Source: Terriglobia bacterium
GTDB lineage: Bacteria; Acidobacteriota; Terriglobia; 2-12-FULL-54-10
Reading direction: 5' to 3'
DNA: 64,000 bases
NCBI GenBank assembly: GCA_963666975.2
Contig: CAXVYR010000004.1
Location: 2,304,001 to 2,368,000 of the forward strand
The position numbers and the translations under genes are program-made. A model generated the notes under the pieces. The model searched no databases and was not told the origin of the DNA. It worked only from the letters and a program-made list of their open reading frames with translations. Shown here one piece after another: positions 5,180 through 60,265 of the stretch. The stretch's first letter is position 1. Each line of letters begins with the position of its first letter.

Positions 5180-5247
5180 AATAGCCATCGGGATGGCGTA
5201 ACGGAAAGCTGACGAGTTTTGGCAGGCGCCGACTCGGTTCTCCACAT

Positions 5248-7772: not shown

Positions 7773-7845
7773 TGTACGTCGTCAGATAATGTTGGACACA
7801 GAGCATAAAAAGATAAGGTGGCGTTCAGGCTCCTCTGGGTTGATG

Positions 7846-11252: not shown

Positions 11253-11455
11253 ATCCGGGATCGGCGCTGGAACACGAATAAAGGTTCACGCCGGAGGTCA
11301 ATAGAAGGTTACTTCTGCAATTTAAAATCGGAGATGCTGTCGAGGAATTCGGAACTCGTGAAAATCTTCCGGTCCCGGGGCGAGAGCGGTTCCCGTGACA
11401 GTGTAGAGTGGGGCAACAGGAAGCTAAGCCGTTTCCGCGTGCGCCAAGCCGAGGG

Positions 11456-11494
11456 GTTAGCAAGCGGACCCTTACACCAGTTTTTCAACAACCT
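11456..11494 (-). repeat. Partial copy of the MITE at 27741
   Basis: Reverse complement matches 27741-27779 with one mismatch. Confidence 0.8.
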
Positions 11495-11572
11495 CTTAGG
11501 AATGCTGGACTCTATTGCAATTTGAAGCGATAGCCTCTCTCTTTCGCTAGGGGAAGCGGGGCAGGAACGGTC

Positions 11573-12490
11573 CTAACGGCGCGGCGGGTTTTTTCCTTCC
11601 GGAGGCAGGGCGCGGTAGCGGCTGAATTCATGGTCGCCGGCTTTGCGACAACTGACCCACCGGTACCAGGGAGCTGTTTCAATAGAGAATCCGGCGCCTG
11701 CAATACTGCTGGGACGCATGGCAACACCTGGCCGGTCAACCGGCTCGGCACTCTCTTGTTCTCTGGGGATTCCGGGGCCGGCCTCTTGCGGGGCAACTGT
11801 CAGGAATTTTTCGTCCACCCACCCGCCCCGAACCAAGTGTCCGTAGAGCGTAGGACCCGCCTCGCACAGCAAGTACCGCACGCCGTGCTCCTTACGCAGC
11901 GTGCGCAGCAGCGATCCCAGGTCCACGGACCTCCCATAGCCAGATACCAAAACCTGCGTCTCGCCGGTATCGCCCAGGTTTCCGAAGCCCTCCGGGGTTG
12001 TGGCAATCAGCGTCTCCACATGCTCAGACCGGAACAAGCGGTAGTCGGCCAGCTTCAGGTTGCCGGAGCCGGTAACGAGGATGTTTCTCTGTTTGCCCCG
12101 GCCCAGCCGCTCGCGGCGCAGACGGAGCAACTCCGGGTCGGTGATGCGGAACACGGGACCTCCCGGGATGCCTCCGGAAAGCGTTTCCTGGATGAGCGAG
12201 CCCGCTCCGTAAAGGACCGCGTCGGCCTGCACCCGCAGCAGGTCCATCATCCAGCGGTCGTGGCGGCTTCGGGAGATCCACTCTCCTCCCGGCCGCTTCC
12301 CGCCAAAGGTAACCATGCCGTCGAGGCTCTGCACGAAGTTGGCGTAAACCCACGGACGGTCCGGGGGCGGGTCGGGAAAACCCAGGTTGCCTGCAAACCG
12401 GAGCAGGCCCGCGGGCAGCGCGGGATTCGGTTCGCTGGTGTCAAACAACACTTCAAAGGGATCCAGCCCTGGTGGCGCTTTGAATTCCAT
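11573..12490 (-). CDS. RibD C-terminal / dihydrofolate reductase-like protein
   Basis: RPWVYANFVQSLDG, LRVQADAVLYGAGS, LLCEAGPTL. Confidence 0.8.
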   Translation of the reverse strand: MEFKAPPGLDPFEVLFDTSEPNPALPAGLLRFAGNLGFPDPPPDRPWVYANFVQSLDGMVTFGGKRPGGEWISRSRHDRWMMDLLRVQADAVLYGAGSLIQETLSGGIPGGPVFRITDPELLRLRRERLGRGKQRNILVTGSGNLKLADYRLFRSEHVETLIATTPEGFGNLGDTGETQVLVSGYGRSVDLGSLLRTLRKEHGVRYLLCEAGPTLYGHLVRGGWVDEKFLTVAPQEAGPGIPREQESAEPVDRPGVAMRPSSIAGAGFSIETAPWYRWVSCRKAGDHEFSRYRALPPEGKNPPRR

Positions 12491-29591: not shown

Positions 29592-31010
29592 TGTTGTTAG
29601 CAAGTTAAAATGTCCGGTATTGGTAGCAAGTGAAATGTCCGGTTTCATGATTCTGCCGAAAGCGGTTTGGCGCTGACCGAAGGAGCCCGCAGGGCGACTG
29701 AGGTTAGTGCCGAATGGTGTCGTCGGGAAGCCCCGGGGCTCCGCCGCCGACCACCGCACCGGATCGCCACTCCCTCGGAGGAGTAGCGACCCACTGTGTG
29801 CGGTCCATAGCCAATGCTCAACGTCCCATCCAGGTGTTCATAGACGGTCACCCGGCAGCCCGCCAGAGTCCCGCGCCAAGGAGTTTTCTCGATCTGGAGG
29901 AGGCGGTTCTCCAGACTGACCGTATTGTCCCGATTCACCACCCGTTCGTGCTGGATCGAGAAGATTCGCTCTAACTCCCGCCTGGCTGACGGCAAAAAGG
30001 CGCTGCCCGGTTGGGCGGTCGGCACGGCAAAGCGCCGGTTGAACTCCCCGATATAGCCCTCCCGCAGGAAGCGATTCGCTGCCTCGACCGTGATGATTCC
30101 CCGCAGGCGCAACTCTTGTGGCAGCCGCCCTTGCCAGGTCCCGAAGTTTCGCTCGCCACGTCCCCGCGCCTGTGGCGAATAGGCCGGGATCATCTGAATG
30201 CCCAGCTCCCGCAGCGCACGGCCCACCTGGGTCAGCCGTTGCCGATCCACCGGCTCGCCCGCCTTCCGGGTCAGGAAGAAATGACTGGCCCGGTCGCTAT
30301 AAAGGGCGCAAAAGACCCCCTGTTGCTCGACCACCTCCCGCAGGGCAGCCAGCACCGTCCGCGTCGATTCCTGCTCCACCAGTTGCGCATAGTAAATCTC
30401 GCTGGTGGCATCATCCAGAACCACCAGCAGGTCATACCAGCGATCATCGACAAACCACCGATGCTGGCTCCCATCCAGATGCAGCAGCATCCCCGGCAAC
30501 GGCCGCCGGGGCCGCCGCTGGCGGTGCACGCCCCGCTTCCGCCTCTTGTTTACCAACCCCGCCCCCTGCAACGCCAGCTTCACCCACGTATAGCTCAGCC
30601 GGAGGCCGTGCTCCTCCCGCAGCTTCTCGTGAAAGTGCCGCACGTTGAAGTCAAAGTACTTCTCTTGATACAGCCCCAGCACCTTCTCCACCGTCCTCAG
30701 GGGTACCCGCCGCGGGCTCGGCTTTCCCCGCCGCCGGTCAAACAGCCCGTCGTAGCCGTACTGCTCGTACCGGCTGCTCCACCGCCGCATCTGCCGGTCG
30801 CTGATCCCGATGATCTCGGCTGCCTGCCACCAGTTGATCCGCTTCCCTATCGCTCGCAAGATTACTTCTTGTATCTTCATTGCCCGCTCCACGGCGGCCC
30901 TCGGGTATGACTCCATCTCCACCTCCTGGATAGATGGTCTTACCCCAGACCGCCTTCAAAGCGGACACTTCACTTGCTATTTCCACCGGACATATCATGT
31001 GCTAACGACA
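29592..31010 (-). mobile_element. IS1202-family (ISNCY) insertion sequence with 16-bp target duplication
   Basis: Ends TGTTGTTAGCA / TGCTAACGACA with repeated subterminal motifs; TCCTTATTTCATGGAG duplicated at 29576-29591 and 31011-31026. Confidence 0.88.
29645..30922 (-). CDS. DDE transposase (IS1202/ISNCY type)
   Basis: LLHLDGSQHRW, LDDATS, LYSDRASHF, SPQARGRGER…QGRL. Confidence 0.92.
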   Translation of the reverse strand: MEMESYPRAAVERAMKIQEVILRAIGKRINWWQAAEIIGISDRQMRRWSSRYEQYGYDGLFDRRRGKPSPRRVPLRTVEKVLGLYQEKYFDFNVRHFHEKLREEHGLRLSYTWVKLALQGAGLVNKRRKRGVHRQRRPRRPLPGMLLHLDGSQHRWFVDDRWYDLLVVLDDATSEIYYAQLVEQESTRTVLAALREVVEQQGVFCALYSDRASHFFLTRKAGEPVDRQRLTQVGRALRELGIQMIPAYSPQARGRGERNFGTWQGRLPQELRLRGIITVEAANRFLREGYIGEFNRRFAVPTAQPGSAFLPSARRELERIFSIQHERVVNRDNTVSLENRLLQIEKTPWRGTLAGCRVTVYEHLDGTLSIGYGPHTVGRYSSEGVAIRCGGRRRSPGASRRHHSALTSVALRAPSVSAKPLSAES

Positions 31011-36316: not shown

Positions 36317-37105
36317 CTAGAGGTCGGGCTCGGCCTTCTGCGACTCCTGCAGAGGGGCTTCCGGGCGCAGGTAGCGTTTCGTCAGCCCCTCCTGCAAGAG
36401 TTTGAGGGCCGTTTCGGGGTCGTCGGCAAACTGAAACAGATCCATGTCGCTTGCGCTGATGGTTCCGTGTCGAACCAGGGCCTCGAAGTTGATTACCTCG
36501 TTCCAGAACTCGGAGCCGTAGAGCAGAATGATGAGCCTCTTGTTCATCTTCTGAGTTTGGACAAGCGTCAGGACCTCCATCATCTCATCCAGCGTTCCGA
36601 ATCCGCCGGGGAAAAAGACCACGGCTTTGGCCAGGTAAGCAAACCAGAACTTGCGCATGAAGAAGTAATGGAATTGGAAGGAAAGCTCCGGTGTGATGTA
36701 GGGATTCGGGTACTGCTCGAATGGCAGTCCGATATTCAAGCCGACCGTCTTCCCGTTTGCATCCTGGGCCCCTAGATTTCCTGCCTCCATGATTCCCGGT
36801 CCCCCGCCGGTACAGACGACAAAGCGGCGGTTGGGGTCCTTCAGTTGGTCAGACCACTCGGTAACCATCCGCGCCAGAGTCCGCGCCTCGCGATAGTAGC
36901 GACCGAGAGAGTCTTTTTCCTCAATGCGGGCTGAGCCGAAGAAAACAACCGTATCCCGAATCCTCTCCCGGCGAAAGTGGGAGAAGGGCTCCAAGAACTC
37001 CGAAAGAATGCGCAATACCCGCGCGTCGGGACTATCCAAAAATCGTTCGTTCTTGTAAGCCACTGGCCGGTGATGGCCAGGCGGTGGATGATCACTCATA
37101 CTCAT
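36317..37105 (-). CDS. LOG-family protein
   Basis: TGGGPGIMEA, FHYFFMRKFWF, PGGFGTLDE. Confidence 0.92.
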   Translation of the reverse strand: MSMSDHPPPGHHRPVAYKNERFLDSPDARVLRILSEFLEPFSHFRRERIRDTVVFFGSARIEEKDSLGRYYREARTLARMVTEWSDQLKDPNRRFVVCTGGGPGIMEAGNLGAQDANGKTVGLNIGLPFEQYPNPYITPELSFQFHYFFMRKFWFAYLAKAVVFFPGGFGTLDEMMEVLTLVQTQKMNKRLIILLYGSEFWNEVINFEALVRHGTISASDMDLFQFADDPETALKLLQEGLTKRYLRPEAPLQESQKAEPDL

Positions 37106-37145: not shown

Positions 37146-38486
37146 TCAGGGAAATTCCTCTTTCAGGCGAGAAGATGATTTAGCTGGAAACCATGGGGGG
37201 TTTTCCTGTAGCAGACGAAACTTGGAGCTTGTCCCGTCCGGCTCTGCGGCGTGCCCGTCCGTCTCTGCAGCGTGAATGACAATCGGCATCGGGACGGTGT
37301 TGCCGTCCTGGTCTCTCACGTCCACGGCTTCGGAGGAAAGAGGCATGATCTTCATGGTCCTATCCTCTATTTCGACCAGCAAGAAATGGGATTGCGGCGC
37401 CCAGCCGGCGATGTATGCATCTTGCATTTTGCCGCGAATATCGTTCCGGCGCAACATGCCTCCAGCGCCGGTGATTACGTAACGGGCGTTGCCGGTCTTT
37501 ATGTTCCGCTCACTGAACTGAAAATTATGCTCATGGCCGTTGAAGACCACCTGCACGCCGGTTTGGCGAGACAAATCGACCAGAGGGCGCAGGGAATCGA
37601 GACTCGCCCCGTGTCCCGGTCCTGCATTAAACGGCGGGTGATGGTAGTAGGCAATCTTCCATGTCGCTTTGGCGGCGGCCAAGGCTTGCCGCAGCCATTG
37701 CATTTGACTGCCGTGCAATGCTTTTTCGGTTGTGTCGAGGGCGAAGAATTCGGCCAACCCTCCGAAGGAAAATGCGTAGTAGCGCGCCGGTTCCAGGGCA
37801 GGGAAAAAGTTGTCCAGGTATGCGCCCAGATCGCCTGCTGATTCCGATCCCTTGCTGTCGTGATTTCCAAGCGTCGGGTAAAAGGGAATATTTCGCAGAA
37901 GGCGTTCGTAAGGCTGGAAGAATTTCCGTTCCCAATGGCTGTCCTTGTCGCCGCTTCGGGTTGGGATCAAACCCAGTATTCGGTCGGCATAGATATTGTC
38001 GCCGGTCGTTAATACGAAGCGAACCGGATTGTCAGAGCGGTTTCGCGGCTCGAACTCCTTCCACATCGCCTCTGCAATTGCATATTGGGGGGGCTTGCCC
38101 GTGCCGTAGTCGCCGATCACAAAAAAAGCCAGCTTCCGGGATTTGTCCGGATAAGTTCGCACCGTGCCACCGCCGATCCTTTGCTTTCCGAGCGTGGCTT
38201 CGTATGGGTACTCCGTGTCCGGACGGAGGCCGTCCACGACAACCCAGTTCCGCTCGGAGACGATCTGTCGGTTCCCCACTTTTACGGTGACTTTTCCGAG
38301 AGAGACCGAACCTCGGCCGATGGTGTTGCCGCTGCCTTCGGTTTTCCCCCAGGCAAGCAGCACGGAATTGGTTTCGATCCGCCCTACGTAGGTGTATATC
38401 TTCTGCGCATGGGCTGGAAAGGATAACAGCAGGAGAACAGAGAACATCCACAGCGGTCCCGTCCGTAACACTCGAACATGGCTCAC
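37146..38486 (-). CDS. Exported metallophosphoesterase (purple acid phosphatase-like)
   Basis: Signal peptide ending AHA; IGDYG, GDNIY, LGNHD, HHPP and GHEH motifs; GTG start after AGGAG. Confidence 0.88.
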   Translation of the reverse strand: MSHVRVLRTGPLWMFSVLLLLSFPAHAQKIYTYVGRIETNSVLLAWGKTEGSGNTIGRGSVSLGKVTVKVGNRQIVSERNWVVVDGLRPDTEYPYEATLGKQRIGGGTVRTYPDKSRKLAFFVIGDYGTGKPPQYAIAEAMWKEFEPRNRSDNPVRFVLTTGDNIYADRILGLIPTRSGDKDSHWERKFFQPYERLLRNIPFYPTLGNHDSKGSESAGDLGAYLDNFFPALEPARYYAFSFGGLAEFFALDTTEKALHGSQMQWLRQALAAAKATWKIAYYHHPPFNAGPGHGASLDSLRPLVDLSRQTGVQVVFNGHEHNFQFSERNIKTGNARYVITGAGGMLRRNDIRGKMQDAYIAGWAPQSHFLLVEIEDRTMKIMPLSSEAVDVRDQDGNTVPMPIVIHAAETDGHAAEPDGTSSKFRLLQENPPWFPAKSSSRLKEEFP

Positions 38487-38496
38487 GGTAGCTCTC

Positions 38497-40170
38497 CTAC
38501 CAAGCGCGGTCAATTCCCACCACCTCCACGCGGTCCGGCCTTTTGCGAAGATAGACGGTGATCCTCTTTTGGGGGTCCACCACCCCCTGAATGTCGACGG
38601 CGAAGTATTCCCCGTCGGCCGATTCCAAGAGCCGGCTCGGCAGGCGAAAGGATGTTTTGCCGACGATGGACGTCTTTGCTTCCGTGTCAATTGCGGCATT
38701 CCTGTCGAGATCATTGTCGAATCGCGACCACCGGACAACATAGTCCCGCGAAGGAACCAGACGATGCTTGACGGCAAGGTCTTCAAAGACCAACTGTCCC
38801 TCTGTAACGGCAAATCGATCCAGCGGCAGTATTTTGGCGAGGAAAGCTTTTCCGATTTTGTCACGGCGCTCGATCAAACGATCAACAATCCATTCCTCGG
38901 CCTCCGGGTTGCTATATTGTCCCGTCTTCACGATGGCGCGAATCTGCGAGTCGCTGAAAGCCATCACCTGCTTGGCGGCCCAGAAGGCGTCGTCCGGGAG
39001 GCGGTTGACGAACGCCGGATTGGGATATTCGGCCACCCAACCCGCCGCGTCAAACGTCTCCGATTCGAAGCGCCCCACGGAGGGTAGGTCAGGAAACTTA
39101 GCTCGGGCCCATCGGGGCACAACCAGACCAAAGGTAAAGAACTGGATGGCGGCCGGCTTCCAGGCGAACACATACTCATGCCCGGACCTCGGAGTGTTCG
39201 GGCCGTTGCTGGCGCTTCCCAGGGTGGAGCCGAAGTCGATTAGATGATGCTCGACGTAAGAAAGGCCGTTTTCCCTCACCAGCATATCGAGCGTATTAAT
39301 GGACCGGGAATCGTCGTGGCCGAGCCAGGCGCAAAAAACACTGAGGCCGCGCAGGTCCCGCCGGTGCTCGTGAGGAACAATATCGTTGGGATCGTCCTTC
39401 CTCGTGCCGTGATACCGAAAAGGGCCCACGGGCCTGCCGGAAAGAATCAGACTTGCCACCCCCCGGTACTTCCCCTCTTCGTCGTGGGGAACTTTGAGAA
39501 GAATTTCAGTGACGTCCCGCTCCTCCATCTCCCGTTCATCGCCCACCGGGTCACGAAGCAGCACATCGTCGTCCAGCACGAGTTGCTCCCGGTTGAAAAA
39601 CACCAGGTAGTTCTCCGGCACATGGTATCCCAAGGCGTAGAAAAACTTCGACGAGATCACGTCGGCTGCCGTGGCGATTTCCGGATAATTTAGAGGGTCG
39701 AACTTCAGAATGTAGATGCGGCCTTGGGAATCGAGGATCGTAAAGCCCGGGGTAATTCCTTCCGCCTTGGCGGCAACCACCCGCCAGGGCCCCTCCAAGG
39801 ACGGCGCATTCTCATCGCCGGGACCCCGAACCAGCTCTTCCGTCGTCATCGGGTTCTGGTAATGACGGTTCGTGTACCAACTGCTGTCGGGCGCCTCTCC
39901 CAGGGTGTTGACCGCCTGTGCCGGAATCAGCTTGGTTTTTGTATGCCGTTCTCCGGGTTGGGACAACGTGTTGTAAAAAAAATCGTAGTAGTCGCTCAGC
40001 TTGCGGCTCAACACATTTTCCACGTTCATCGGGGGCGGCACTTTTGTGATGGGATCGTCCTCATAAAACTTTTGCGCGCTGAGGTTCAGTGGCAGCAGCA
40101 GCAAAAGAAGTGTGATTCTCAGGAACTGGCCGCTGAGAAGCGATTGCGAAGTCATGCGGTGTCCATTCAT
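38497..40170 (-). CDS. Exported hypothetical protein with atypical protein-kinase-like motifs
   Basis: Signal peptide (LLLLLLPLNLSA); KAEGITPG, YILKFD, LGYHVP, HDDSRSIN, LIDFGS. Confidence 0.6.
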   Translation of the reverse strand: MNGHRMTSQSLLSGQFLRITLLLLLLPLNLSAQKFYEDDPITKVPPPMNVENVLSRKLSDYYDFFYNTLSQPGERHTKTKLIPAQAVNTLGEAPDSSWYTNRHYQNPMTTEELVRGPGDENAPSLEGPWRVVAAKAEGITPGFTILDSQGRIYILKFDPLNYPEIATAADVISSKFFYALGYHVPENYLVFFNREQLVLDDDVLLRDPVGDEREMEERDVTEILLKVPHDEEGKYRGVASLILSGRPVGPFRYHGTRKDDPNDIVPHEHRRDLRGLSVFCAWLGHDDSRSINTLDMLVRENGLSYVEHHLIDFGSTLGSASNGPNTPRSGHEYVFAWKPAAIQFFTFGLVVPRWARAKFPDLPSVGRFESETFDAAGWVAEYPNPAFVNRLPDDAFWAAKQVMAFSDSQIRAIVKTGQYSNPEAEEWIVDRLIERRDKIGKAFLAKILPLDRFAVTEGQLVFEDLAVKHRLVPSRDYVVRWSRFDNDLDRNAAIDTEAKTSIVGKTSFRLPSRLLESADGEYFAVDIQGVVDPQKRITVYLRKRPDRVEVVGIDRAW

Positions 40171-40195
40171 TAAGAAATCGACTCTGTGCATAGGC

Positions 40196-41294
40196 CTACC
40201 AAGTGCGATCCATCCCGACGACTTCCACACGATCGGGCTTTTTGCGAAGATAAACCGTTACCGTCTTTTTCGGGTCGCTGCCATGAATCTCAGCGGCGAA
40301 ATAATTGCCAGGCGCTGATTCCAGAAGTTGTTTTGGCAAGCGAAAGGTTGTTTCGTCGGCAATTCGCGTCTTTTGTTCCGTATCGTTGTCGAATCGCGAC
40401 CACTGGACCGCATAGTCCCGCGGGGAGATCAGACGGTGCTTGACGGCAAGGTCCTCAAACTCCAGCAGATCGCTTGTCACCTGAAAGCGATCCAGAGGCA
40501 AGACCTTTTGAAAGTAAGTCCTCCCGATCTTGTCTCTGCGGGCAATGAGGTGGGATGTGAGCCCATCCTCGGCAGCCGGGTCACTGTAGTCGGCCGTTTG
40601 GACAAGGGCCCGAATCTGTCCGTCCGTAAAAGCCATCACCTGCTTGGCGGCCCAGAACGTGTCTCCGGGCAGCCGGTTTTCAAAAGCGGGAATCGGGTAG
40701 TTGGTCTTCCACTTCTCTGGCTCGAAAAGCTGCGATTCGAAGTTGCCCAGCGACGGGAGCTTGGGATAGCGCGCCCTGGCCCAGCGAGGCACATAGAAGC
40801 CGAGGGTGAAAGCTTGCAAGGCGGACGACTTCCAGGCAAATAGATACTCATTGCCCGCCCGAGGACTTTTCGCCGTGAAGCTGTCGCTGCCCAGGCTCGC
40901 GCCAAAATCGAGCAGAAAGTGCTTGACATAACGGATGCCGTTTTCTTCCACCAACGTGTCGAGCGAGTTGAGCGACTTTGCGTCATTATGTCCCAGCCAG
41001 GCAAAGAAAACGAACAGACCTCGCAGGTCGCGGCGATGTTCGTGCGGCACTACATCGTTCGGATCGTCGCGACGGGTGCCGTAGTAGCGGAAAGGTCCCA
41101 GGATCTTGCCGCTCAGATACAGGCTGGCCACCGCACGGTATCCCTTATCAGAGTCGCGCGGCACACGCAGAAGAATTTCCCCGATATCCCGATCGTTCAT
41201 CTTCCGGTGTTTGCCGTCCGCATCCGTGAGGGTGGCATCGGGCGCCACTACGAGCTGTTGCCGCTTGAAATACACGACGTAGTTCTCCGGCATT
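40196..41294 (-). pseudogene. Tandem paralogue of the kinase-like protein, 5'-truncated by IS3
   Basis: High similarity to 38497-40170 (PHEHRRDLRGL, HNDAKSLN, LLDFGAS); starts at PENY right at the IS end. Confidence 0.8.
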
Positions 41295-42816
41295 TGTACG
41301 TCGTCAGATAATGTTGGACACAGAGCATAAAAAGATAAGGTGGCGTTCAGGCTCCTCTGGGTTGATGTTAGGCTGCCCTTCTTTTGAAGTGCAACCGTTT
41401 TCTTAAGATCATAGTTTTCTCTTTGATGCGATCCCGTTTTTGCAGGATGGCACTGCCTTGGCCTGTAAAAACGTCATACGGTGTCAGGTTGTTCAGGCTT
41501 TCATGGTATCGGTTGGTGTTGTAGTGGTTGACGAAGGCATCGATCTGCCGCTCCAGCTCTTCTGGCAGGTAATAGTTGTTGAGCAGGATGCGGTCTTTCA
41601 GAGTTCGGTGCCAGCGTTCGATCTTGCCCTGCGTCATGGGGTGATAGGGCTTGCCGCGAGTATGCGGCACGCTGTTTTCTGCCAGCCATGATTGCAGTTC
41701 GGAAGAGACGTAGCACGGCCCGTTGTCGCTCAGGAGGCGAGGTCTGTGCCGGGCGCCCACGCGGTCGAGGCCGGTGGCTTGCAAAGCATCCCGCAACGTG
41801 GCCGAGACGTCACTTGCGCTCATGGTTTTGCACAGCCGCCAGGCGATGATATAGCGCGAGAAGTCGTCCAGCACCGTGGACAGGTAGAACCAGCCCCAAC
41901 CGATGACTTTCAGGTAGGTGAAGTCGGTCTGCCAGAGCTGGTTGACCGCCGTGGTCGGGTTGGCGAACCGTTCCGCCGCTTTCAGGACAATAAAGGCTGG
42001 CGCGGTAATCAGGTCATGGCTTTTCAGGACGCGGTAAACCGTCGATTCAGAAAGGTAATACCGCCTTTCCTCGGTAAAACGCACCGCCAGCTCGCGTGAC
42101 GACAGATCGGGCTCGGCCAGGGCTAACGTCACCAACTGCTGAGTTATCTCCTCCGGCACCTTGTTCCAGACAGGGCCAGGATCGGGTTTTTTGTCTTCCA
42201 GCCCATCAAAGCCTTCCGACACATAGCGGTCGTACCAGTTGTAAAACGTCGATCTGGGAATGCCAACCTGCTGCAGCGTCCGGCGCACCCCCAGGGCAGA
42301 TTGCTCCACCGTGCAGATGATCTCCAGCTTCTCCGAGGCAGGGTATCTCATGTATGTTCCTCCCCATCCCCGATCACGCATGGTGGTGGCTTTTTTTAGC
42401 AGGCGATTTTCCAGCATAGCCTCGGCCAGGGCCTCTTTCAGCTGTACGGCCTGCTCCCGCAGAGTCTTGACTTCGCCACTGGTTGCCTCACGGTCTATGT
42501 CGCCCGCCAGCCGCTTGCGGCCAGCCTCCAGAAACTCCTTGCTCCAGCGGTAATACTGGTTCTGGTGCAGCCCCTCGCGGCGGCACAGCTCCGCGATGCT
42601 GTCCTCGCCGCGAAGTCCCTGCAATACAATGCGGATTTTGTCTTCCGGGCTGAACCTGCGCCGCGTCCTGCGTTTGATCTCCCGGACGGCCTTCTCGACC
42701 GCCCCCCTGTCGTCTTGTTTTTGTCTCATCTTCGTTCCTTTCAGTCTCTACGATGAGCCAAAAACATCACCTTAACTATTACCCTCTACCTGTCCAACAA
42801 GCCCTGACGGGGCACA
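41295..42816 (-). mobile_element. IS3-family insertion sequence, copy 2 (1522 bp)
   Basis: Same IRs and sequence as 7773-9284 apart from a net +10 nt at the frameshift site. Confidence 0.92.
41368..42729 (-). CDS. In-frame fused OrfAB transposase
   Basis: LLKKATTMRDRGWGGTYMRYP joins OrfA and OrfB without frameshifting. Confidence 0.75.
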   Translation of the reverse strand: MRQKQDDRGAVEKAVREIKRRTRRRFSPEDKIRIVLQGLRGEDSIAELCRREGLHQNQYYRWSKEFLEAGRKRLAGDIDREATSGEVKTLREQAVQLKEALAEAMLENRLLKKATTMRDRGWGGTYMRYPASEKLEIICTVEQSALGVRRTLQQVGIPRSTFYNWYDRYVSEGFDGLEDKKPDPGPVWNKVPEEITQQLVTLALAEPDLSSRELAVRFTEERRYYLSESTVYRVLKSHDLITAPAFIVLKAAERFANPTTAVNQLWQTDFTYLKVIGWGWFYLSTVLDDFSRYIIAWRLCKTMSASDVSATLRDALQATGLDRVGARHRPRLLSDNGPCYVSSELQSWLAENSVPHTRGKPYHPMTQGKIERWHRTLKDRILLNNYYLPEELERQIDAFVNHYNTNRYHESLNNLTPYDVFTGQGSAILQKRDRIKEKTMILRKRLHFKRRAA

Positions 42817-42960
42817 AGCGACTTTTCCACCATCCGGTGGTTGTCCCTTTTTACCGTTGTCGTTGTCGTGGTATGGATTTATGCGGCCCGTTACGCGGGG
42901 CGCCACTTCCATAAAATGACACAGTCGAAGGTTGGTTCCGCAACCAAGGTCACCGTCTGA
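42817..42960 (+). pseudogene. C-terminal remnant of a membrane transporter (possibly Npt/TLC-like)
   Basis: SDFSTIRWLSLFTVVVVVVWIYAARYAGRHFHKM…* starts in frame exactly at the IS end. Confidence 0.45.
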
Positions 42961-43255
42961 CCTATATTGGCCCGTTTGCCGGGAAATCCCGGGTCGGGCG
43001 AAAGTCCTTCAGGCGATTTTGCTGATCTTCCTGCCGGGCGGTTAGCGCCTTTTCTCAATCTTTTGTCCTCCCTGCGTTGTCGCGTTGGCGTCAGGAACTT
43101 GCCAAAGCAGTGGGGTTAAGAATAGCTCGCAACGGGCACGCGGCCGCTTCGAGGCGCAGATGTCGTCCCCGCATTTTGCCCGTTGTCTCAAGCAGTGGGG
43201 GCTTGAACAACCGGCTTTATTCCTATATGACGGTATTGTAGAGGGAGGAGAATCT

Positions 43256-44692
43256 ATGAGGCGCAAGATATATCTGTTCGTCTTCGTCCTGACGCTTGTT
43301 GTCTGCCTTTTGCCTAACCGTGACCTTCTAGGTCAATCTCCGTCAAAGAAAGAACCAGCAAGTGACCTGATGAAGTTGAGCACCTCGCTCCAGGCCTTGT
43401 CGGAACGGGTCAGCCCGGCGGTGGTGCAGATTTTCACGACGGGCTTTGCCCCAGTCCAGGATGTTGTGGGGGCCAGCACAGGGCTGGTTTCCACCCAACG
43501 CAGCAGCGGCTCCGGGGTCCTGGTTGACCCGGATGGGTATATCGTCACCAACGCTCATGTGGTCGAAGGCGCCCGGCGAGTGCAAGTCTTGCTGGCGGTT
43601 TCACCTGATGAGAGAGCCCAGTGGCGCTCCATTCTAAAGCCTCGCGGGAAGATGGTTCCTGCCCATATCGTAGGAATCGATCGAGAGACCGATCTCGCCG
43701 TACTGAAGGTTGAACAAAAGGGGCTGGCGGCGCTCGAACTGGGGAATTCCGACCGGGTACGGCAGGGCCAGTTGGTGCTGGCGTTCGGCAGTCCTCTCGG
43801 GTTGGAGAATTCGGTGAGCTTGGGCGTGGTGAGCTCCGTGGCGCGCCAACTTCGCCCCGAGGATCCGATGATCTATATCCAAACAGATGCCACCATCAAT
43901 CCCGGGAACAGCGGCGGACCCCTGGTGGACACCGAGGGTCGCGTGATTGGGATTAACACATTCATCGTGTCGCAGTCCGGCGGCAGCGAAGGAATTGGCT
44001 TCGCAGCGCCCAGCAATATTGTCCGTAACGTTTTCAGGCAGATCCGAAGGACCGGACGGGTTCGCCGCGGCGAGATAGGGTTGGCGACCCAAAGCGTGAC
44101 GCCGACGCTCGCAGCCGCCTTGGGGCTCACGCAGGACTGGGGTGTGATCGTTCGAGATGTGTTTCCCGGCGGACCGGCCTATGCGGCTGGAGTCGAGATC
44201 GCAGACCTGATCCTGACTTTGGATGGCAAAGTCATGGAGAATGCGCGTCAGTTTGAGGTGAATCTCTACCAGCGTTCCATTGGCGACGCGGTGACCCTGG
44301 AGGTGCTTCGCGGTTCGCAAAAGCTCACGAAGATCGTTACGTTATGGGAGCGCGCCAACGACCCCGACCTTTTTGCGGACATGGTCAGCCGCGAGACAAA
44401 CCTCATTTCAAAGCTTGGTATTCTGGGCGCCGAGCTGGACGACCGGATCATCGAAATGCTCCCGCCGCTGCGGGAATCCTCCGGCATTTTGGTTGCAGCA
44501 CGGGCCGCGCAGGCCCCCTCTCAGGGCGAAGGATTTCTGCCGGGTGACGTGATTCATTCGATCAACGGGGCGCCGATCCGGAACCTCGCCGGACTCAGAG
44601 CCGCAGTGGACGGCCTCCAGATCGGCGACCCGGCAGTTATCCAAATCGAGCGGCAGGGTCAATTCCTGTTCCTTGCCTTCGAGATCGAATAG
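43256..44692 (+). CDS. HtrA/DegP-family serine protease with two PDZ domains
   Basis: TNAHVV, DLAVLK, INPGNSGGPL; signal peptide; RBS GGAGGAG. Confidence 0.93.
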   Translation: MRRKIYLFVFVLTLVVCLLPNRDLLGQSPSKKEPASDLMKLSTSLQALSERVSPAVVQIFTTGFAPVQDVVGASTGLVSTQRSSGSGVLVDPDGYIVTNAHVVEGARRVQVLLAVSPDERAQWRSILKPRGKMVPAHIVGIDRETDLAVLKVEQKGLAALELGNSDRVRQGQLVLAFGSPLGLENSVSLGVVSSVARQLRPEDPMIYIQTDATINPGNSGGPLVDTEGRVIGINTFIVSQSGGSEGIGFAAPSNIVRNVFRQIRRTGRVRRGEIGLATQSVTPTLAAALGLTQDWGVIVRDVFPGGPAYAAGVEIADLILTLDGKVMENARQFEVNLYQRSIGDAVTLEVLRGSQKLTKIVTLWERANDPDLFADMVSRETNLISKLGILGAELDDRIIEMLPPLRESSGILVAARAAQAPSQGEGFLPGDVIHSINGAPIRNLAGLRAAVDGLQIGDPAVIQIERQGQFLFLAFEIE

Positions 44693-44727
44693 GAATCGGA
44701 AGCCGGGAACTCAGCCGGGCTCAGCCC

Positions 44728-47097
44728 TCACTTGAGTCCACTTGGTTGCTGGCTGTCTCCAAACTTCTTCCTCAACTCGGTGAGGTTCAGTTCAATAGAC
44801 TGGTGGGAGCGCATCAGGGTAGCCAGGATTTCTTCGCGGGAGCGCGTCTCTCGCTTTTTCTTGCGGCGGTCTTCCAGGAAGGGCCACAGCCGCTCGCGGA
44901 TCGGCGGGGGCAGGATGCTTTCCAGGTATTCCAGGGCAGTTCCCCGGAGGTGCTCGTCGGTGGTGTGCAATCCCCGGAAGGCGATTTGGAGAGGCTCTTT
45001 GGGCAGAACCAGCGAGAGAATCGTAAAGACGTGTTCCAGGCTCCGATTCGCGCGGTCCCTCAGGAAGTCGTCTATAAAGGGCGAATCCTCCAGACCATCC
45101 TCCGGGTCCAGGAGCCGATGGCTTCCCCAGACCTTCTTGCCGACGGTTACTTCCCGCTTCACGGCCTCGAAGACCGGCTCCGGGTCGATGCGAATTTCCG
45201 GGTTTCTGTCCCGAACCGATGCCAGCGCGCAGCCGCATTGAAAGCGGACCTCAAACCGCTTGTCGGCCAGGCCCAGCAAAAGCCCGTCGGCCACCCGCTG
45301 GGAAGCGGTGACAGAAAGCACCTTCGGGATGCGCCGACGGATGGCGAATTCCTGGCCCGGGTCGAGTAGCGCATCCACCAACTGCCCCGTCATGTGAGGG
45401 GCTGCCCGGCGCAGAGCCAGCAAGGCGTCGTCGGAGACCTCGTCCCACGCGAGCAGGGGAATGACGTGTGAAAACAGGAGCGGGTCGAGAAGTTCCTCCG
45501 CGCGCAGAGCCTTCCGAACACGGTCCGCGTCTGCCGAGCGGAAAGCCGCAATCCGCTCGACAACCGGGTCCTGAGGGGTCGGAGCCGCTTTTCCCTGCTT
45601 CTTCGATGCCATGTCGCGAGATAGGCCGAGGGACGGAACGTCGGATTCTGACTTGTGGATCAAGAGGTCCCTGCGCTGCGTTTTCTCGCTGGGGAGAGGC
45701 TGGGAAGAGGGGAGCGCCGGGAGGTCGCCGCTCAGATGCAGGGCTCCGAGGGTTTGCAAAATCGTGGAGCGGGTGGTGCTGTCCTCTGCCTCGGAAATGT
45801 CCAGTTCGACCTTCCGGTTCAGCAAATTCTTCTCGAGCGAAACGATGTAGCCACGGTTCAAGCGGCTGGCCACCAGGAGACCCAGGAACGCAAGGACAAT
45901 CGACAGGACCAGGATGGCGGAGTGCGCTACGGCCGGTCCGAGCAGCAGCATCAATCGGATGAGGCCGCCGCCGAGAGCGTCTCCCAGGCGGTCAAATCCC
46001 ACATCGACCATAGTTTTGGTTGCGCGCTTTTCCTGGGCGGGGATCGGCGTATAGAGAATTTCGTACCCGGAACGGAAAAGGGAGCTGCGAACCACCGACT
46101 CCGCGCCCCGGGCGATCCCGGCGCTGCCGAGACCCGGCGCAATCAGCGCTCCTACTCCTCCCGCAGCCACGATGAAGGGAAGAGTCCCCACCGTTTTCGC
46201 GAGGCCCAGCTTTTCCAGCGCGCGGCGGCTGAGAGAGGTCTGAATAAAGAAGGTGAGCAGGCTGGCGGCGCTGTAGAAGACGGCAAAGAAGCGCATCAGG
46301 CTCTCCCCGCCCCCAAAGGTTGCGGCGGCTTGAGCCTTGAAGACGTAGTCAATACCGGCGCCGCTCACCGTCGCCAGCAGCACCAGCACGGCCAGGTTGC
46401 GCAGGTAAGGAGCTTCTCTGAGGATATGGAAGACCGACCGGCCGCGTGCAGGAGCGGAGTCGCCGCTCGAATCTTTTTTTTCCGGCGGCTGCCCTGCCGG
46501 CTTCCCCGCCGGAGGGCCAGCCACGTCTTGCAGCGGCCTCAGCCCGCGGACCGCCCAGGCGCAAAACAGATGGAGGGCGGCCATCATGGGAAGCATGGTC
46601 GCGACCGAGAAAGTCGCCCCCACGCGTTCGGCCAGAAGGCCGCCGGCGAGTCCTCCGAGAGTGGCTCCGCCGGCAATCCTTCCGATTCGTTTCTTGGCTG
46701 TCCTGGGATCGAACCGCTCGTTCACCATCGACCAGAACCCCGAGATCAGCACGGCGCCGATACCGGCCATGTGGAGATAGACCACAACCGCGCCTGCTCG
46801 CGGACTTTGGTGCACCAGTCCCCACTCGCCCAGCAGCAACAATCCGCTGACCGCAAAAGCGCGGGGAACCAGTTTGGCCGGGGTGAGCGCGGGCATCGCA
46901 CGGGAGGCTGCGAGCACCACGACAATGGAGAAAAAAGATGCCCCGATCAGCATCAGGGGCAGGGAGGTCACGTCAAAATTGGAAAGGAAAAGAGCGTCGC
47001 GGGTCGCCTTCCCTCCTACCTGGTGGGCGATCATGGCGGCAGCGCTCAGCATGGCGGCGGAGGCAGCCGCATCGGTTTCCGAGCGCCTGGACATCAC
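44728..47097 (-). CDS. Npt1/Npt2 (TLC ATP/ADP translocase)-like MFS protein with C-terminal HEAT-like repeats
   Basis: GKATRDALFL, FWSMVNERFDPRTAKK, EILYTPIP…KRATKTMVDVGFDRLGD; helical C-terminal domain. Confidence 0.7.
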   Translation of the reverse strand: MMSRRSETDAAASAAMLSAAAMIAHQVGGKATRDALFLSNFDVTSLPLMLIGASFFSIVVVLAASRAMPALTPAKLVPRAFAVSGLLLLGEWGLVHQSPRAGAVVVYLHMAGIGAVLISGFWSMVNERFDPRTAKKRIGRIAGGATLGGLAGGLLAERVGATFSVATMLPMMAALHLFCAWAVRGLRPLQDVAGPPAGKPAGQPPEKKDSSGDSAPARGRSVFHILREAPYLRNLAVLVLLATVSGAGIDYVFKAQAAATFGGGESLMRFFAVFYSAASLLTFFIQTSLSRRALEKLGLAKTVGTLPFIVAAGGVGALIAPGLGSAGIARGAESVVRSSLFRSGYEILYTPIPAQEKRATKTMVDVGFDRLGDALGGGLIRLMLLLGPAVAHSAILVLSIVLAFLGLLVASRLNRGYIVSLEKNLLNRKVELDISEAEDSTTRSTILQTLGALHLSGDLPALPSSQPLPSEKTQRRDLLIHKSESDVPSLGLSRDMASKKQGKAAPTPQDPVVERIAAFRSADADRVRKALRAEELLDPLLFSHVIPLLAWDEVSDDALLALRRAAPHMTGQLVDALLDPGQEFAIRRRIPKVLSVTASQRVADGLLLGLADKRFEVRFQCGCALASVRDRNPEIRIDPEPVFEAVKREVTVGKKVWGSHRLLDPEDGLEDSPFIDDFLRDRANRSLEHVFTILSLVLPKEPLQIAFRGLHTTDEHLRGTALEYLESILPPPIRERLWPFLEDRRKKKRETRSREEILATLMRSHQSIELNLTELRKKFGDSQQPSGLK

Positions 47098-47102
47098 TCT
47101 GG

Positions 47103-48807
47103 CTACGTCTCCCTTTCCGTGACCAGATCAGCCTGTGGACGAGCTTCCGGAGACGGCATGTGGGTGCGCCACCAGCGCTCGGCGCGCTCCGGGCTCCAAG
47201 TTTCGGCTATCTCGCAAGCAGCCAGCCGCCGGGAGAGTTCCAGCGCGCTTTGCGGCCGCTTGTCAGGCTCCTTTTCCAGGCAGGAGAGGATGACTTGTTC
47301 CAGGGACGCGGGAATGTCGACCTCAGTACGTTCCGACGGCGGGATGGGAGGGGTTTGGAGGTGTGCCAGCAGCATGGCCATAGGAGTGCTTCCTTCGAAC
47401 ACTAGCTGTCCTGTCAACAGCCAGTAGCCGACGCATCCCAGGGCGTAGATGTCCCAGGCGGCATGTAGGCCGGCGTGCCCGTTGTGGTTCCCTCCACGGT
47501 GAGCCGGGTTTGAGCTTCTTCCGATTGCAGTCCGCGCATCGATCCCCAAGGCCATTTCAGGCGGCATGTAGGCCGGCGTGCCCGTTGTGGTTCCCTCCAC
47601 GGTGAGCCGGGTTTGAGCTTCTTCCGATTGCATGTCATCCTTCACAAAATCAAGCACCTTGATGAAATCATAATCCAGGCCCAAGCGGCACGCGAAAATG
47701 TTCTTGGGGTTGATGTCGCGATGAATCAAGCCGTTGCTGTGTGCCTCGGCCAACGAGTCGCAGGCTTGCTGGAGAAAGTAGATGACCCGCTCGGGCGGCA
47801 GAGGACCGAAACGCTCCACCAGCGCATCCAGATCGAGTCCGTCCAAAAGCTCCATCACGTAGTAGAAGCATCCGTCATCGGCGGTGCCAAAATCGTACAC
47901 CGCAACCGTATGGGGAGAATGGAGCGCGGCGGTAGCCTGCACCTCCCGCTCGAAACGGCGCGCCACAGTGCCCGCCCGTTTATCCTTCATCATACAGATA
48001 TCGGATCGAATCATTTTGAGAGCTGACGTGCGCGCCAGCATGCGATGCTGCGCCCGCCAGACCTCTCCCATGCCGCCGCTCCCGAGCGGGTCGAGCAGTT
48101 ATGTAACTCCCCATCTCCCGCGCCTTGCTGACGTCGCACCCCAGCCGGTAGATGAAGCGAGACAACAGCATCGCCCCCGCGGCAAACCAGAAGTTCGGGA
48201 AGAAAAGACCCAGCCACACGCCGGGCTCCGGAACAGGGCTTTGGTGGAACAAAATCGACACCCACAACCCGACAGGACCCATTGCGGCGGAGCTCAGGGC
48301 CGCCAGATGTGTCTTTCCAAACGTGCCGGGCACGACCAGGACGAAGAACGCGATCCAAACAACAACCGAGGAGATGCCTCGCGCCGGCAGGTCCGGAGAA
48401 AACGGCATTGAGAATTCGACCAAAGCGATCCAGAAAGCACCGACGACTTCAAAGAGGAGGCCGATGTCCAGCATCAAACGGTCCGGCAGCTTCCGGCTCC
48501 ACGCCAGCGCGCAGACAACCGAACCAGTAACAATGGCGCCAATCAGGCCGATGTCGGCAAGAGGAAAAAGCGCCGGAAACAGGTAGTGCTCGGGAATGCC
48601 TTCGGGATGGCCGCTGTAATGGCCAACAAGGCGAAGAGCGATATGGGACGCCACGTAAACAAGCGCGAGCCACCCCAATCGGTTGACCGCCTTTTCCACC
48701 ATATCGGGCGGCAGATCATAGCAATGGATCGTGCTCCGGTTTGACCCGGTTGGCTGCGGGGTTTCCGCCCGTGTGACCTGCGCGGGTTGGTTTTCTGGCT
48801 GCTGCAT
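47103..48807 (-). pseudogene. Membrane Ser/Thr (Hanks-type) protein kinase with several lesions
   Basis: GGMGEV, ALK, HRDIN, GTPAYM; frameshift near 48080-48100, DFG reduced to DFV, internal 75-bp duplication. Confidence 0.75.
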
Positions 48808-58816: not shown

Positions 58817-60265
58817 GAGGGTGTCCCATACATAGTTGAAGGTTGAACGGCGGTTCGGCCCGAATCGAATAGAATCGGGCCAAGCCTAAATCCTATAGAA
58901 GGAGAACCGCCGAATGAAGGGAAAATATCACGTTTTGGAACTGGGTTCCAAGGGAGCCGAAGAAACCATCCAGAAGTTTTGCCAAACCAACGGACAGATG
59001 CTGTTGCCGGTGGTGGATCTGATCACGGAGGCGCGTCTGGCGGTGGATGAGGTGATTGATCGGGCCGGGCGAGGTTTGATTGAAACGATTCTGAGCATGA
59101 GCGCAGAGCAAATCGCGGGGCCAAAGAGTCCCGGGAAGGCGAGCGGAGAGGTGCGCTGGCATGGCCGGCAATTGGGGAGGGTGAAACTGGCCGATCGCCA
59201 GCTGCGGGTGGAGCGGCCCCGGCTGCGCCGGAAGGGCGGAGGGGAAGAAGCGGTGCCGGCCTACGAAGCGCTGCGGAAAAGCGAGAAGACGGGCGAGGAG
59301 ATGTTCGAGGCACTGTTGAAAGGGGTTTCGACGCGGAACTACCGCGAGGTGATCCCGGAGATGGCCAACAGCGCTGGGGTGTCGAAGTCTCAGGTGAGCC
59401 GGGAAGCGGCCGAGCAAGGAGCGCGGCGGCTGGAAGAACTGTTGGCGCGGCGCTGGGAGGAGGTCGAGATTCTGGTGATTTACCTGGACGGAATGCGGTT
59501 CGGCTCCCACCACGTCATCAGCGCCGTGGGCGTGGACATCGAGGGCCGCAAGCATGTGCTGGGGATTCAACTGGGCGCGACCGAAAACGCCGCTGCGGTG
59601 AAAGACCTTCTCACCCGCCTGCGCCAGCAAGGTTTGCGCACGGATCAGCGCTATCTGTTTGTGATCGACGGCGCCAAAGCGCTCCGCGCGGGGATCGAGG
59701 AAGTATTCGGCAGCAATCAGCTGGTGCAGCGTTGCCGTACTCATAAGCTGCGCAACGTGGCTGAGCGGTTACCAAAGGGCGACAAAATGCTGGCGAATCA
59801 GGTGCGGTCGCTGATGCGCGCCGCCTGGCGATTGCCCCAAGCCGAGGAAGGCATCGTGCGCATAAAAAAGCTCGCTGGGATGATCGAGTGCGATCATCCG
59901 GCAGCAGCCGCCAGCTTGCGCGAAGGGTTGGAGGAGACCTTTACGATCAATCGAGCCGACGTTCCTCCCAGCCTCCACCGCTGCCTGGCAACCACGAACC
60001 TCATCGAGAGCCCGCAGTCGGGCGTGCGGAAAAAGACTGGCAATGTTTGCCGCTGGCGCGACGGCGAGATGACGTTGCGCTGGGTGGCAGGAGCGTTTCT
60101 GCTGACCGAGAAGAATTTCCGGAAGATCATGGGTTATCACGATCTCTGGGCTTTGGCATCGATTCTCGGCCGAAGTCCAAACGCTGCTTCCTCTCACAAG
60201 GAGGAAGTGGCGTAATATGAACTCAACCCGCCGTCCCAACCTGCAACTGAGTTTGGGACACCTTC
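58817..60265 (+). mobile_element. IS256-family insertion sequence
   Basis: IRs GAGGGTGTCCCA… / …TGGGACACCTTC; 8-bp target duplication ACTTTTTT at 58809-58816 and 60266-60273. Confidence 0.92.
58914..60215 (+). CDS. IS256 (Mutator-type) transposase
   Basis: GVSTR, YLDG, VIDGAKAL, QRCRTHK, TTNLIES. Confidence 0.93.
   Translation: MKGKYHVLELGSKGAEETIQKFCQTNGQMLLPVVDLITEARLAVDEVIDRAGRGLIETILSMSAEQIAGPKSPGKASGEVRWHGRQLGRVKLADRQLRVERPRLRRKGGGEEAVPAYEALRKSEKTGEEMFEALLKGVSTRNYREVIPEMANSAGVSKSQVSREAAEQGARRLEELLARRWEEVEILVIYLDGMRFGSHHVISAVGVDIEGRKHVLGIQLGATENAAAVKDLLTRLRQQGLRTDQRYLFVIDGAKALRAGIEEVFGSNQLVQRCRTHKLRNVAERLPKGDKMLANQVRSLMRAAWRLPQAEEGIVRIKKLAGMIECDHPAAAASLREGLEETFTINRADVPPSLHRCLATTNLIESPQSGVRKKTGNVCRWRDGEMTLRWVAGAFLLTEKNFRKIMGYHDLWALASILGRSPNAASSHKEEVA

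Follow-up and report, generated by a model that had tools for sequence, protein, structure and literature searches.

The 64,000-nt window analysed here, part of acidobacterial contig CAXVYR010000004.1, contains between positions 37146 and 48807 a copy of a conserved acidobacterial envelope gene cluster that has been eroded by an insertion sequence (IS). In relatives the cluster encodes an Omp85-superfamily barrel, an exported protein of a kinase-fold family that we call KL, phosphatases and transporters of the nucleotide-transporting NTT family. In the window, an IS3-family element and an adjacent deletion removed the barrel gene and about 182 codons of one of two KL genes (KL2), and left a short NTT gene with only its last 46 codons. 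Only KL1, a metallophosphoesterase (MPE) gene and a long NTT gene with a putative C-terminal repeat domain (NTT-HEAT) are still intact, and the system is probably no longer complete here. We consider the best explanation of the region, at about even chance, to be the remains of a cluster in which exported KL, barrel, phosphatases and NTTs served periplasmic phosphorylation.

The features of the cluster copy are given below. Coordinates are positions in the window, and minus-strand features are listed from high to low.

47103-48807, minus strand: membrane Ser/Thr kinase gene (Pkinase), disrupted, in two frames
44728-47097, minus strand: NTT-HEAT transporter gene, intact, encoding a TLC-like domain of the 12-transmembrane type and a putative C-terminal repeat domain (NTT-HEAT profile)
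42820-42960, plus strand: remnant of the short NTT gene (tlcS), last 46 codons and stop (weak profile match and synteny)
41294-42817, minus strand: IS3-family element, transposase at 41368-42729 (rve and HTH_Tnp_1)
40196-41293, minus strand: KL2, a KL1 paralogue without the first ~182 codons, 365 aa (63% identity to KL1)
38497-40170, minus strand: KL1, predicted kinase-fold protein, intact, 557 aa (AlphaFold2 fold; no library family match)
37146-38486, minus strand: MPE, purple-acid-phosphatase-like, predicted to be exported (PF00149; start GTG at 38486 or ATG at 38447)

Much of this layout had been described in an earlier note made from the letters of the window. We recover its minus-strand run of two paralogues with kinase motifs as KL1 and the truncated KL2, and its metallophosphoesterase, whose possible GTG start at 38486 lies 10 nt past the KL1 stop. 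The signal peptides that it proposed agree with hydrophobic N-termini on KL1 (as on 45/45 family members) and MPE by a hydropathy heuristic. The Npt/TLC-like transporter that it placed at 44728-47097 matches our NTT-HEAT profile over its full length (E 1.8e-252), and the remnant of a possible second transporter at 42817-42960 is the C-terminal end of a short NTT, an assignment backed by synteny. The membrane Ser/Thr kinase that it listed is present (PF00069), but the gene is split, carries an internal repeat and is not intact. The IS at 41294-42817, which is the cause of the KL2 truncation, was absent from that description.

Insertion and deletion in the window copy

The IS carries a fused 453-aa transposase (41368-42729) with rve and HTH_Tnp_1 domains and is bounded by 27-nt imperfect inverted repeats. 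The genome holds 31 full-length copies of this IS3-family element with 96.8-100% identity, plus many fragments. Compared with other copies, the one at the locus has gained 10 bases near 42380-42390 that join its two transposase frames, whereas orfA and orfB are separate in the copy at 7772-9284. The ATG of KL2 at 41293 abuts the inverted repeat, so that KL2 is cut exactly at the end of the IS. No target-site duplication was found at the flanks, which fits an IS-adjacent deletion.

What was lost can be read from relatives, in which the place of the IS is taken by the 5' part of the short NTT gene, by the barrel gene and by the start of KL2 (~182 codons). A metagenome contig (L088) has the order Ser/Thr kinase, NTT-HEAT, short NTT (opposite strand), barrel, KL, KL, MPE; order and orientation equal those of the window read on the minus strand, with protein identities of 57-68%. 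KL1 belongs to a six-member clade with 99% support. All of its five companions there have the barrel gene directly upstream, with MPE directly downstream in four and a divergent short NTT in four. That NTT-HEAT and KL are adjacent here is ancestral synteny and not a peculiarity of the window.

Public sequencing runs contain both states of the locus. Read depth is 350-1150 on the IS versus 6-10 on its flanks, and in run X1 contigs the unique flanks reach 28 and 30 nt into the IS, against a bridging bar of 31 nt. Run X3 comes from a different study, and its flanks are otherwise identical to those of the window over the compared stretches (40066-41292 and 42817-47400). Past 41292, an X3 contig continues with 203 letters that have no match, followed by 233 that align to the KL1 N-terminal coding region with 34 differences, and a second X3 contig extends 2091 nt beyond the short-NTT remnant without IS sequence. 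X3 carries an undeleted allele with an intact KL2 N-terminus and no IS at the site. The presence of both alleles in public runs indicates that the deletion is recent and polymorphic. Of the runs that contain the stretch, one bears the label sponge metagenome. Contigs from RNA run X15 cover only the IS and 43903-44106, a segment inside the HtrA/DegP protease gene, with KL1, MPE and NTT-HEAT uncovered, and expression cannot be inferred from them.

The membrane Ser/Thr kinase, a conserved neighbour of the NTT-HEAT gene, has decayed as well. Its Pkinase match is clear (PF00069, 90.5 bits, 1.6e-25), but the membrane part (47980-48807) and the kinase part (47103-48071) lie in different frames here, whereas L088 encodes both in a single frame. 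About 23 aberrant residues stem from a perfect direct repeat of 75 nt (47455-47529 and 47558-47632, 103 nt apart), and the DFG motif reads DF-V, its Gly gone. Judging by these lesions, the gene is probably a pseudogene in the window.

KL proteins have a predicted kinase fold and export-like N-termini

KL1 and KL2 are the only copies of their family in the 4.23-Mb, 98.88%-complete genome, and KL2 is 63% identical to residues 183-557 of KL1. No match to KL1 was found in Pfam (even at E <= 10), in NCBIfam or in the PDB, the last searched both with a single sequence and with a 45-sequence profile. The family is large: among 8000 candidates scored, 5511 proteins matched at E <= 0.001, and it comprises 3313 representative clusters (50% identity). 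Every named member is called hypothetical. The names suggested by the Protein Atlas (Fam20C 0.81, HipA_2 0.79, PI3_PI4 0.79 and CotH 0.79) were all below lead level and were set aside; otherwise that resource returned only "hypothetical protein" clusters for KL.

An AlphaFold2 (AF2) model of KL1, from an alignment of 45 diverse members, reached a predicted local distance difference test score (pLDDT) of 92.2 and a predicted TM-score (pTM) of 0.91. Foldseek against the PDB gave 17 matches at E <= 0.001; those listed are kinases throughout, the best being the Golgi casein kinase Fam20C (1.9e-5). In VIA-align comparisons the highest Z was with CtkA (15.1; 231 residues aligned, root-mean-square deviation 4.2, 15% identity), followed by Fam20C (14.1; 260 aligned), PI4KII (13.0) and HipT/HipA (10-12). 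Consistent with the kinase-like motifs first noticed in 38497-40170, AF2, Foldseek and VIA-align agree with high confidence on a kinase fold, and we confidently assign the modelled KL1 to a bilobal fold of the Fam20/PI4KII/CtkA/HipA branch. The Fam20 family profile PF06702 leaves KL unmatched, even at E <= 10, and we class KL, on its sequence, as Fam20-like in manner and not as a member of that family.

Among the 45 diverse members the kinase positions are K156 in 38/45, E164 in 40/45, D287 in 40/45, N292 in 41/45 and D312 (DFG) in 43/45, and the canonical positions are kept in both window paralogues. Their roles (beta3 Lys, alphaC Glu, catalytic Asp-x4-Asn and DFG Asp) were assigned by the order of predicted strands and helices, without superposition. 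KL is a candidate ATP-binding phosphotransferase. A D260/N262/D263 motif is invariant (45/45), above the conservation of the catalytic residues.

A hydrophobic N-terminal stretch is present in 45/45 members by the hydropathy heuristic. An F-Y-x-D-D-P motif occurs in 30/45, with the hydrophobic stretch directly before it in 29/30, the exception being a truncated gene call; KL1 has the same arrangement. Seven distant members (P0152, P0178, P0186, P0189, P0223, P0234 and P0260) have a lipobox-like Cys in place of the F-Y-x-D-D-P N-terminus. The N-terminus that they replace is the one that contacts the barrel in the model described below, and these lipoprotein-type members may be anchored differently. 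Some KL proteins carry C-terminal extensions of ~420 aa or longer (P0133, P0135 with 969 aa, P0210 with 1158 aa, and L079:276-3296); those of P0133, P0135 and L079 matched no Pfam family or custom profile.

An Omp85 barrel is the invariant partner of KL in relatives

A survey of neighbourhoods for outer-membrane barrel genes, which the earlier note had suggested, gave a uniform result. Directly upstream of KL and on the same strand, 76/78 genome loci carry a gene of ~430 aa, and the remaining two have no upstream DNA. Its product matches the Omp85 superfamily domain PF01103 at E 1.2e-13, and the frames of the two genes often overlap. Among 79 independent metagenome loci the barrel is present in 56/57 with upstream room. 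The Omp85 barrel is thus an invariant partner in relatives, one that the model of the earlier note did not include. Candidate barrel-KL fusions in L065 and L080 were rejected, as both turned out to be overlapping open frames. In the window genome (98.88% complete), neither a single protein nor a 52-sequence profile found a barrel homologue at E <= 1e-3.

Structure prediction suggests how the two proteins meet. KL1 was modelled with the barrel of metagenome relative L147, which has a KL of 88% identity to KL1; the complex scored 0.87, compared with 0.00 for the best of 3 controls. A score of this height was reached by 116/157 solved complexes and 2/215 mismatched pairs, figures that apply only approximately because the prediction used custom alignments. 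Runs share >= 95% of contacts, and partner pLDDT is >= 88. The modelled interface involves the N-terminal ~45 residues and two periplasmic turns of the barrel, and on the KL side the conserved N-terminus, residues 326-367 and residues 256-264, which hold D260/N262/D263. KL is predicted to dock on the periplasmic face of the barrel.

Metallophosphoesterase and transporters

MPE matches PF00149 with 59.6 bits (cut-off 21.5) and solved purple acid phosphatases (PAPs) at E 6e-13 to 1e-7. Its translation begins with a hydrophobic stretch that ends in AHA and contains, read against the PAP metal-ligand consensus, five metal-ligand motif blocks. The PAP N-terminal domain (PF16656) is below threshold, at E 0.12 for the window MPE and 23.7 bits (cut-off 30) for the L045 orthologue. 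MPE appears to be an exported PAP-like enzyme, for which an eraser role may be inferred. Its orthologues lie directly downstream of KL in 11/78 loci and anywhere in the locus in 17/78.

The NTT-HEAT protein, recognised in full by the custom profile, matches PF03219 with 30.5 bits (cut-off 21) over profile positions 409-476 of 491 only, and TIGR00769 with 33.6 bits against a cut-off of 387.2. HEAT families gave no match to it at E <= 10; its L029 orthologue reaches 20.2 bits with HEAT_2 (cut-off 27.7), and a related L058-type transporter matches HEAT at E 1.8e-22. The L088 orthologue is 59% identical and in the same position.

The remnant at 42820-42960 matches a custom short-NTT profile (458 positions) weakly, at positions 429-457 with 7.5 bits. 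Its place and orientation are those of tlcS in the nearest relatives and in L088, which supports reading it as the end of a short NTT gene, coding for the last helix. The short form is a genuine NTT relative: in L029 it matches solved ADP,ATP carriers (E 6.8e-10 and 2.1e-8), and the alignment contains common motifs. NTTs of these clusters would carry out ATP/ADP counter-exchange.

At C3:1153743-1155179 and C3:1089012-1090097 the window genome (G000) has a second short NTT-like gene, among NAD kinase and aldo-keto reductase genes, and a PAP2 gene that seems split into two open reading frames (ORFs). Both sit among unrelated genes and were rejected as parts of the cluster.

Linkage across loci and genomes

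The 78 genome loci, with ~8 kb on each side, come from the best 80 of 543 relatives encoded among 591 pattern matches. They were annotated with profiles built from their own genes, and 8/78 have less than 1.5 kb of downstream DNA. The counts were as follows.

Any NTT/TLC gene: 34/78 loci
Short NTT form: 20/78 loci
NTT-HEAT form: 24/78 loci
MPE: 17/78 loci
Membrane PAP2 phosphatase: 16/78 loci
At least one of NTT, MPE and PAP2: 45/78 loci
Immediately downstream of KL: short NTT in 12, MPE in 11, PAP2 in 9, NTT-HEAT in 2, none of these in 44 (of 78)

A metallophosphoesterase or PAP2 gene is present in 33/78 loci, and an NTT gene in 17/22 metagenome loci of at least 8 kb. Homologues of KL are therefore found with phosphoesterase and NTT genes far above chance, as the proposal of a linked system had anticipated. 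The arrangements vary: the partner genes lie downstream with overlapping frames, divergently upstream, or convergently with a pair of NTT-HEAT and Ser/Thr kinase genes. Start and stop codons of neighbouring genes overlap in KL loci, and the cytoplasmic regulators are variable, being either a membrane Ser/Thr kinase or cyclic nucleoside monophosphate (cNMP)-binding and His-kinase genes. On the FastTree phylogeny of KL we count at least 19 changes for NTT, at least 13 for MPE and at least 10 for PAP2.

We also sampled 251 genomes of the phylum evenly and cross-tabulated them by hand (both tallies include the unpublished genome G048). KL occurs in 45/251 genomes and 35/164 genera. NTT genes are present in 40/45 KL-positive versus 64/206 KL-negative genomes, a co-occurrence to which we attach no probability, related genomes being non-independent. 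Most KL loci are from Bryobacterales-like genomes. KL is absent from all 22 genomes sampled in the class of the window (f2 0/1, f3 0/20, f4 0/1), and the nearest KL relatives are labelled Bryobacterales or Terriglobia, on which grounds the window genome may have acquired the cluster horizontally.

A second exported kinase-like family shows the same linkage

Six of the 78 KL loci contain a signal-peptide gene of ~280 aa, which we call c11. It matches PI3_PI4_kinase with 25.6 bits, just under the threshold of 27.1. Its AF2 model, from 5 sequences, has a pLDDT of 81; compared with 48,161 representative chains it is closest to Hydra Fam20 (Z 18.7, 233/277 aligned), Fam20C (17.9), PI4KII (17.3) and CtkA (15.1), the same structural neighbours as those of KL. 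Kinship of the two families in sequence was considered and rejected: hhalign gave a probability of 4.5% over a single 28-column stretch near the catalytic loop, which is not significant. Outside the window, sites of the c11 family include the following.

L045:8998-9831
L162:11083-11979
L166:8189-10048 and 4908-6197

The family is present in 55/251 genomes and 45 genera, and NTT genes are present in 55/55 of these versus 49/196 c11-negative genomes. In at least 18/55 a c11 match lies within 4 kb of an NTT match. In the class of the window, NTT genes are confined to two genomes, exactly those that carry c11, and there c11 and NTT are adjacent; the window genome itself has no c11 copy. Among six KL-negative short-NTT loci, two (L162 and L166) have c11 with an exported metallophosphoesterase. 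In L162, c11 (11083-11979) precedes the gene of a PPP-like phosphoesterase, and an NTT-HEAT-cNMP gene lies next to them. In L166, a 619-aa protein combining signal peptide, phosphoesterase domain and c11 domain is encoded directly upstream of the short NTT. In the other four (L163, L164, L165 and L167) no kinase-like or phosphatase gene was seen. The linkage of c11, NTT and phosphoesterase supports the KL pattern as an independent replicate.

A proposed periplasmic phosphorylation system and its alternatives

The earlier note had proposed an ATP-fed exported kinase/phosphatase pair. The predicted fold, the export-like N-termini, the co-location and the c11 replicate all speak for that idea; the barrel was missing from it, and the copy on which it was based is eroded. 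None of the outcomes that the note had named as counting against it (no kinase fold predicted, no signal peptides, homologues located apart from phosphoesterase and translocase genes) was observed. As a hypothesis, an extracytoplasmic kinase with a phosphatase and a nucleotide supply is supported by the comparative evidence. In the scheme that we prefer, KL would be a Sec-exported, outer-membrane-anchored periplasmic phosphotransferase, an inner-membrane NTT would swap cytoplasmic ATP for periplasmic ADP and so feed KL, and the phosphatase would reverse the KL modification of an envelope protein, glycan or lipid. The alternation of PAP-like, PAP2 and, with c11, PPP-like enzymes is compatible with protein, glycan or lipid substrates.

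Several observations weigh against this scheme. Nucleotide binding, phosphotransfer and ATP export are steps that we infer, and no Pfam, NCBIfam or PDB sequence match ties KL to a characterised kinase family. The few members without K156, D287 or N292 suggest that some KL proteins may be pseudokinases. The docking is a model prediction made with the barrel of a relative (L147), and the window genome has no barrel, so that KL1 acts here without one or not at all. The window NTT-HEAT is a partial TLC match that is far under the NCBIfam cut-off. NTT, MPE or PAP2 is missing directly downstream of KL in 44/78 loci and within ~8 kb in 33/78, and 5/45 KL-positive genomes have no NTT match. Related genomes are non-independent, and most loci come from one order-level group. 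Finally, NTT function is not tied to KL or c11 alone, because KL or c11 is present in 68 of 104 genomes with NTT genes and both are absent from the other 36.

Three other explanations would account for parts of these data. KL could have a kinase fold without being an ATP-dependent kinase, serving instead as a pseudokinase scaffold or using another nucleotide chemistry or donor, with the NTTs carrying another substrate. Kinase folds are used for AMPylation or glutamylation. In KL the docking motif is more invariant than the catalytic residues, K156, D287 and N292 being replaced in 4-7/45 members, and the window NTT-HEAT matches TLC weakly. According to the sections of PMC5381601 used here, NTTs have been characterised that carry NAD or S-adenosylmethionine (SAM), besides those for ATP. 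We nevertheless consider a non-kinase role unlikely: 84-96% of members, and both window paralogues, retain the five canonical positions, the gene downstream of KL alternates between two non-homologous phosphatase types, and a phosphoesterase is fused to c11 in L166. The alternating phosphatases and the fusion point to phosphate chemistry. The genes might also lack any functional coupling, with KL and barrel working alone and NTT, phosphatase and Ser/Thr kinase nearby through gene order inherited within one lineage. Such inheritance would agree with the mostly Bryobacterales-like origin of the loci, the 33/78 with none of these genes, the NTT genes of 64/206 KL-negative genomes and the behaviour of the NTT-HEAT and Ser/Thr kinase pair as a unit of its own. 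It is difficult to reconcile with the several orientations, the use of both short and long NTT forms, at least 19 NTT changes on the KL tree, the overlapping reading frames and the co-occurrence of the sequence-unrelated c11 with NTT in 55/55 genomes and 45 genera, and we judge it quite improbable.

The invariant barrel raises the further alternative that KL and barrel form a pair resembling two-partner secretion (TPS), which exports a CtkA-like exo-kinase or toxin and has no relation to the NTT and phosphatase neighbours. In type Vb systems the Omp85 gene lies beside the gene of the exported partner, as an Omp85 gene lies directly upstream of the exported partner in 76/78 loci here. The best structural match of KL is a secreted protein, H. 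pylori CtkA (Z 15.1), and the toxin kinases HipA/HipT are matched as well (Z 10-12). On the other hand, the barrel has no POTRA match in Pfam and only ~85 residues between signal peptide and barrel, room for at most one POTRA, and KL has no TPS domain match. In the model KL is folded and contacts the periplasmic face of the barrel with the motif that varies least, 7 distant members are lipoprotein-like, and the repeated operonic linkage to NTT and phosphatase genes would be left unexplained. We regard an export pair as very improbable.

Extending periplasmic phosphorylation beyond this cluster, we put forward only tentatively, as somewhat less probable than not, that some Gram-negative bacteria run ATP-dependent phosphorylation in the periplasm, with ATP exported against ADP by inner-membrane NTTs, at least two families unrelated in sequence as kinases (KL, docked on a barrel of its own, and the minimal c11) and exported phosphatases as erasers. 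The periplasm is regarded as ATP-free, and known envelope modifications use other donors. If true, the proposal would overturn that assumption and give the NTT and NTT-HEAT proteins of free-living bacteria a function. With this cluster, energised extracytoplasmic phosphorylation has a concrete candidate that can be put to the test. Two large families of bacterial Fam20-like proteins, both still unnamed, are defined here, along with a new type of Omp85 partnership. A named strain among the carriers, Paludibaculum fermentans (L059), in which the order is barrel, KL, PAP2, makes experiments feasible. The window shows such a system being dismantled by IS expansion.

Relation to known systems

Each part of the cluster belongs to a known superfamily, and the combination and the implied physiology match no described bacterial system. 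We found no literature on the KL or c11 families, on NTT-linked exported kinases or on NTT-fed periplasmic kinases, in a search that left subscription journals and ~1.7 million PubMed Central (PMC) articles beyond its scope. Fam20C/Fam20B are one parallel to KL. KL (Z 14.1, 260 aligned) and c11 (Z 18.7) fall on the same kinase-fold branch, and both have signal peptides; Fam20 kinases act in an extracytosolic compartment that needs an ATP supply. Unlike Fam20, KL is bacterial, has no detectable sequence similarity to it and has a predicted activity only. It also differs by an additional wrap at the N-terminus, a beta domain at the C-terminus and its pairing with an Omp85 barrel. The closest structure to the KL core is that of CtkA from Helicobacter pylori, a bacterial kinase that leaves the cytoplasm. 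CtkA is not known to have an Omp85 partner or to be linked to NTT or phosphatase genes, and KL differs from it in being twice as long and in its predicted docking in the periplasm. Type Vb/Vd secretion (TpsB/TpsA, PlpD) likewise has an exported protein encoded beside an Omp85-family barrel, but there is no POTRA or TPS match here, and the model docks a folded KL without threading.

MPE matches purple acid phosphatases such as mammalian TRAP/ACP5 and the plant PAPs, and has their metal-ligand blocks. These enzymes are extracytoplasmic phosphomonoesterases, and TRAP acts on osteopontin phosphorylated by Fam20C, a parallel to the kinase/MPE pair. MPE differs from TRAP and plant PAPs in being bacterial and in having the PAP N-terminal domain below threshold. 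For the supply of ATP, the endoplasmic reticulum ATP/ADP exchanger AXER/SLC35B1 follows the same logic in feeding luminal kinases and chaperones; it is eukaryotic and from an unrelated transporter family, so that the likeness is one of analogy only. The protein encoded at 44728-47097 would belong to the NTT-HEAT clade as presented in the sections of Major et al. 2017 (PMC5381601) that we use, where NTT-HEAT fusions are described as widespread and functionally uncharacterised. Relatives also show the NTT-HEAT and cNMP-binding arrangement described there (PMC5381601). Those sections discuss uptake and make no link to exported kinase-like or phosphatase genes, whereas the NTT genes studied here cluster with such genes.

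Neighbouring genes and other mobile elements

Two further genes adjoin or interrupt the cluster copy.

43085-44692, plus strand: HtrA/DegP-type periplasmic serine protease gene (Trypsin_2, PDZ_2)
36317-37105, minus strand: LOG/TIGR00730 gene (TIGR00730)

We exclude both from the system because they are found in few or none of the relative loci. The LOG/TIGR00730 gene (36317-37105) is present in 0/78. HtrA (Trypsin_2 1.3e-37, PDZ_2 4.5e-23) has tblastn matches in 3/78, one of them at orthologue level (49.6% identity). It lies between the short-NTT remnant and NTT-HEAT in the window and is not at that position in L088. Further mobile-element genes in the window are a Mutator-family transposase and an HTH_32-type transposase-like ORF (58914-60215 and 29645-30922), which fit a genome rich in mobile DNA.

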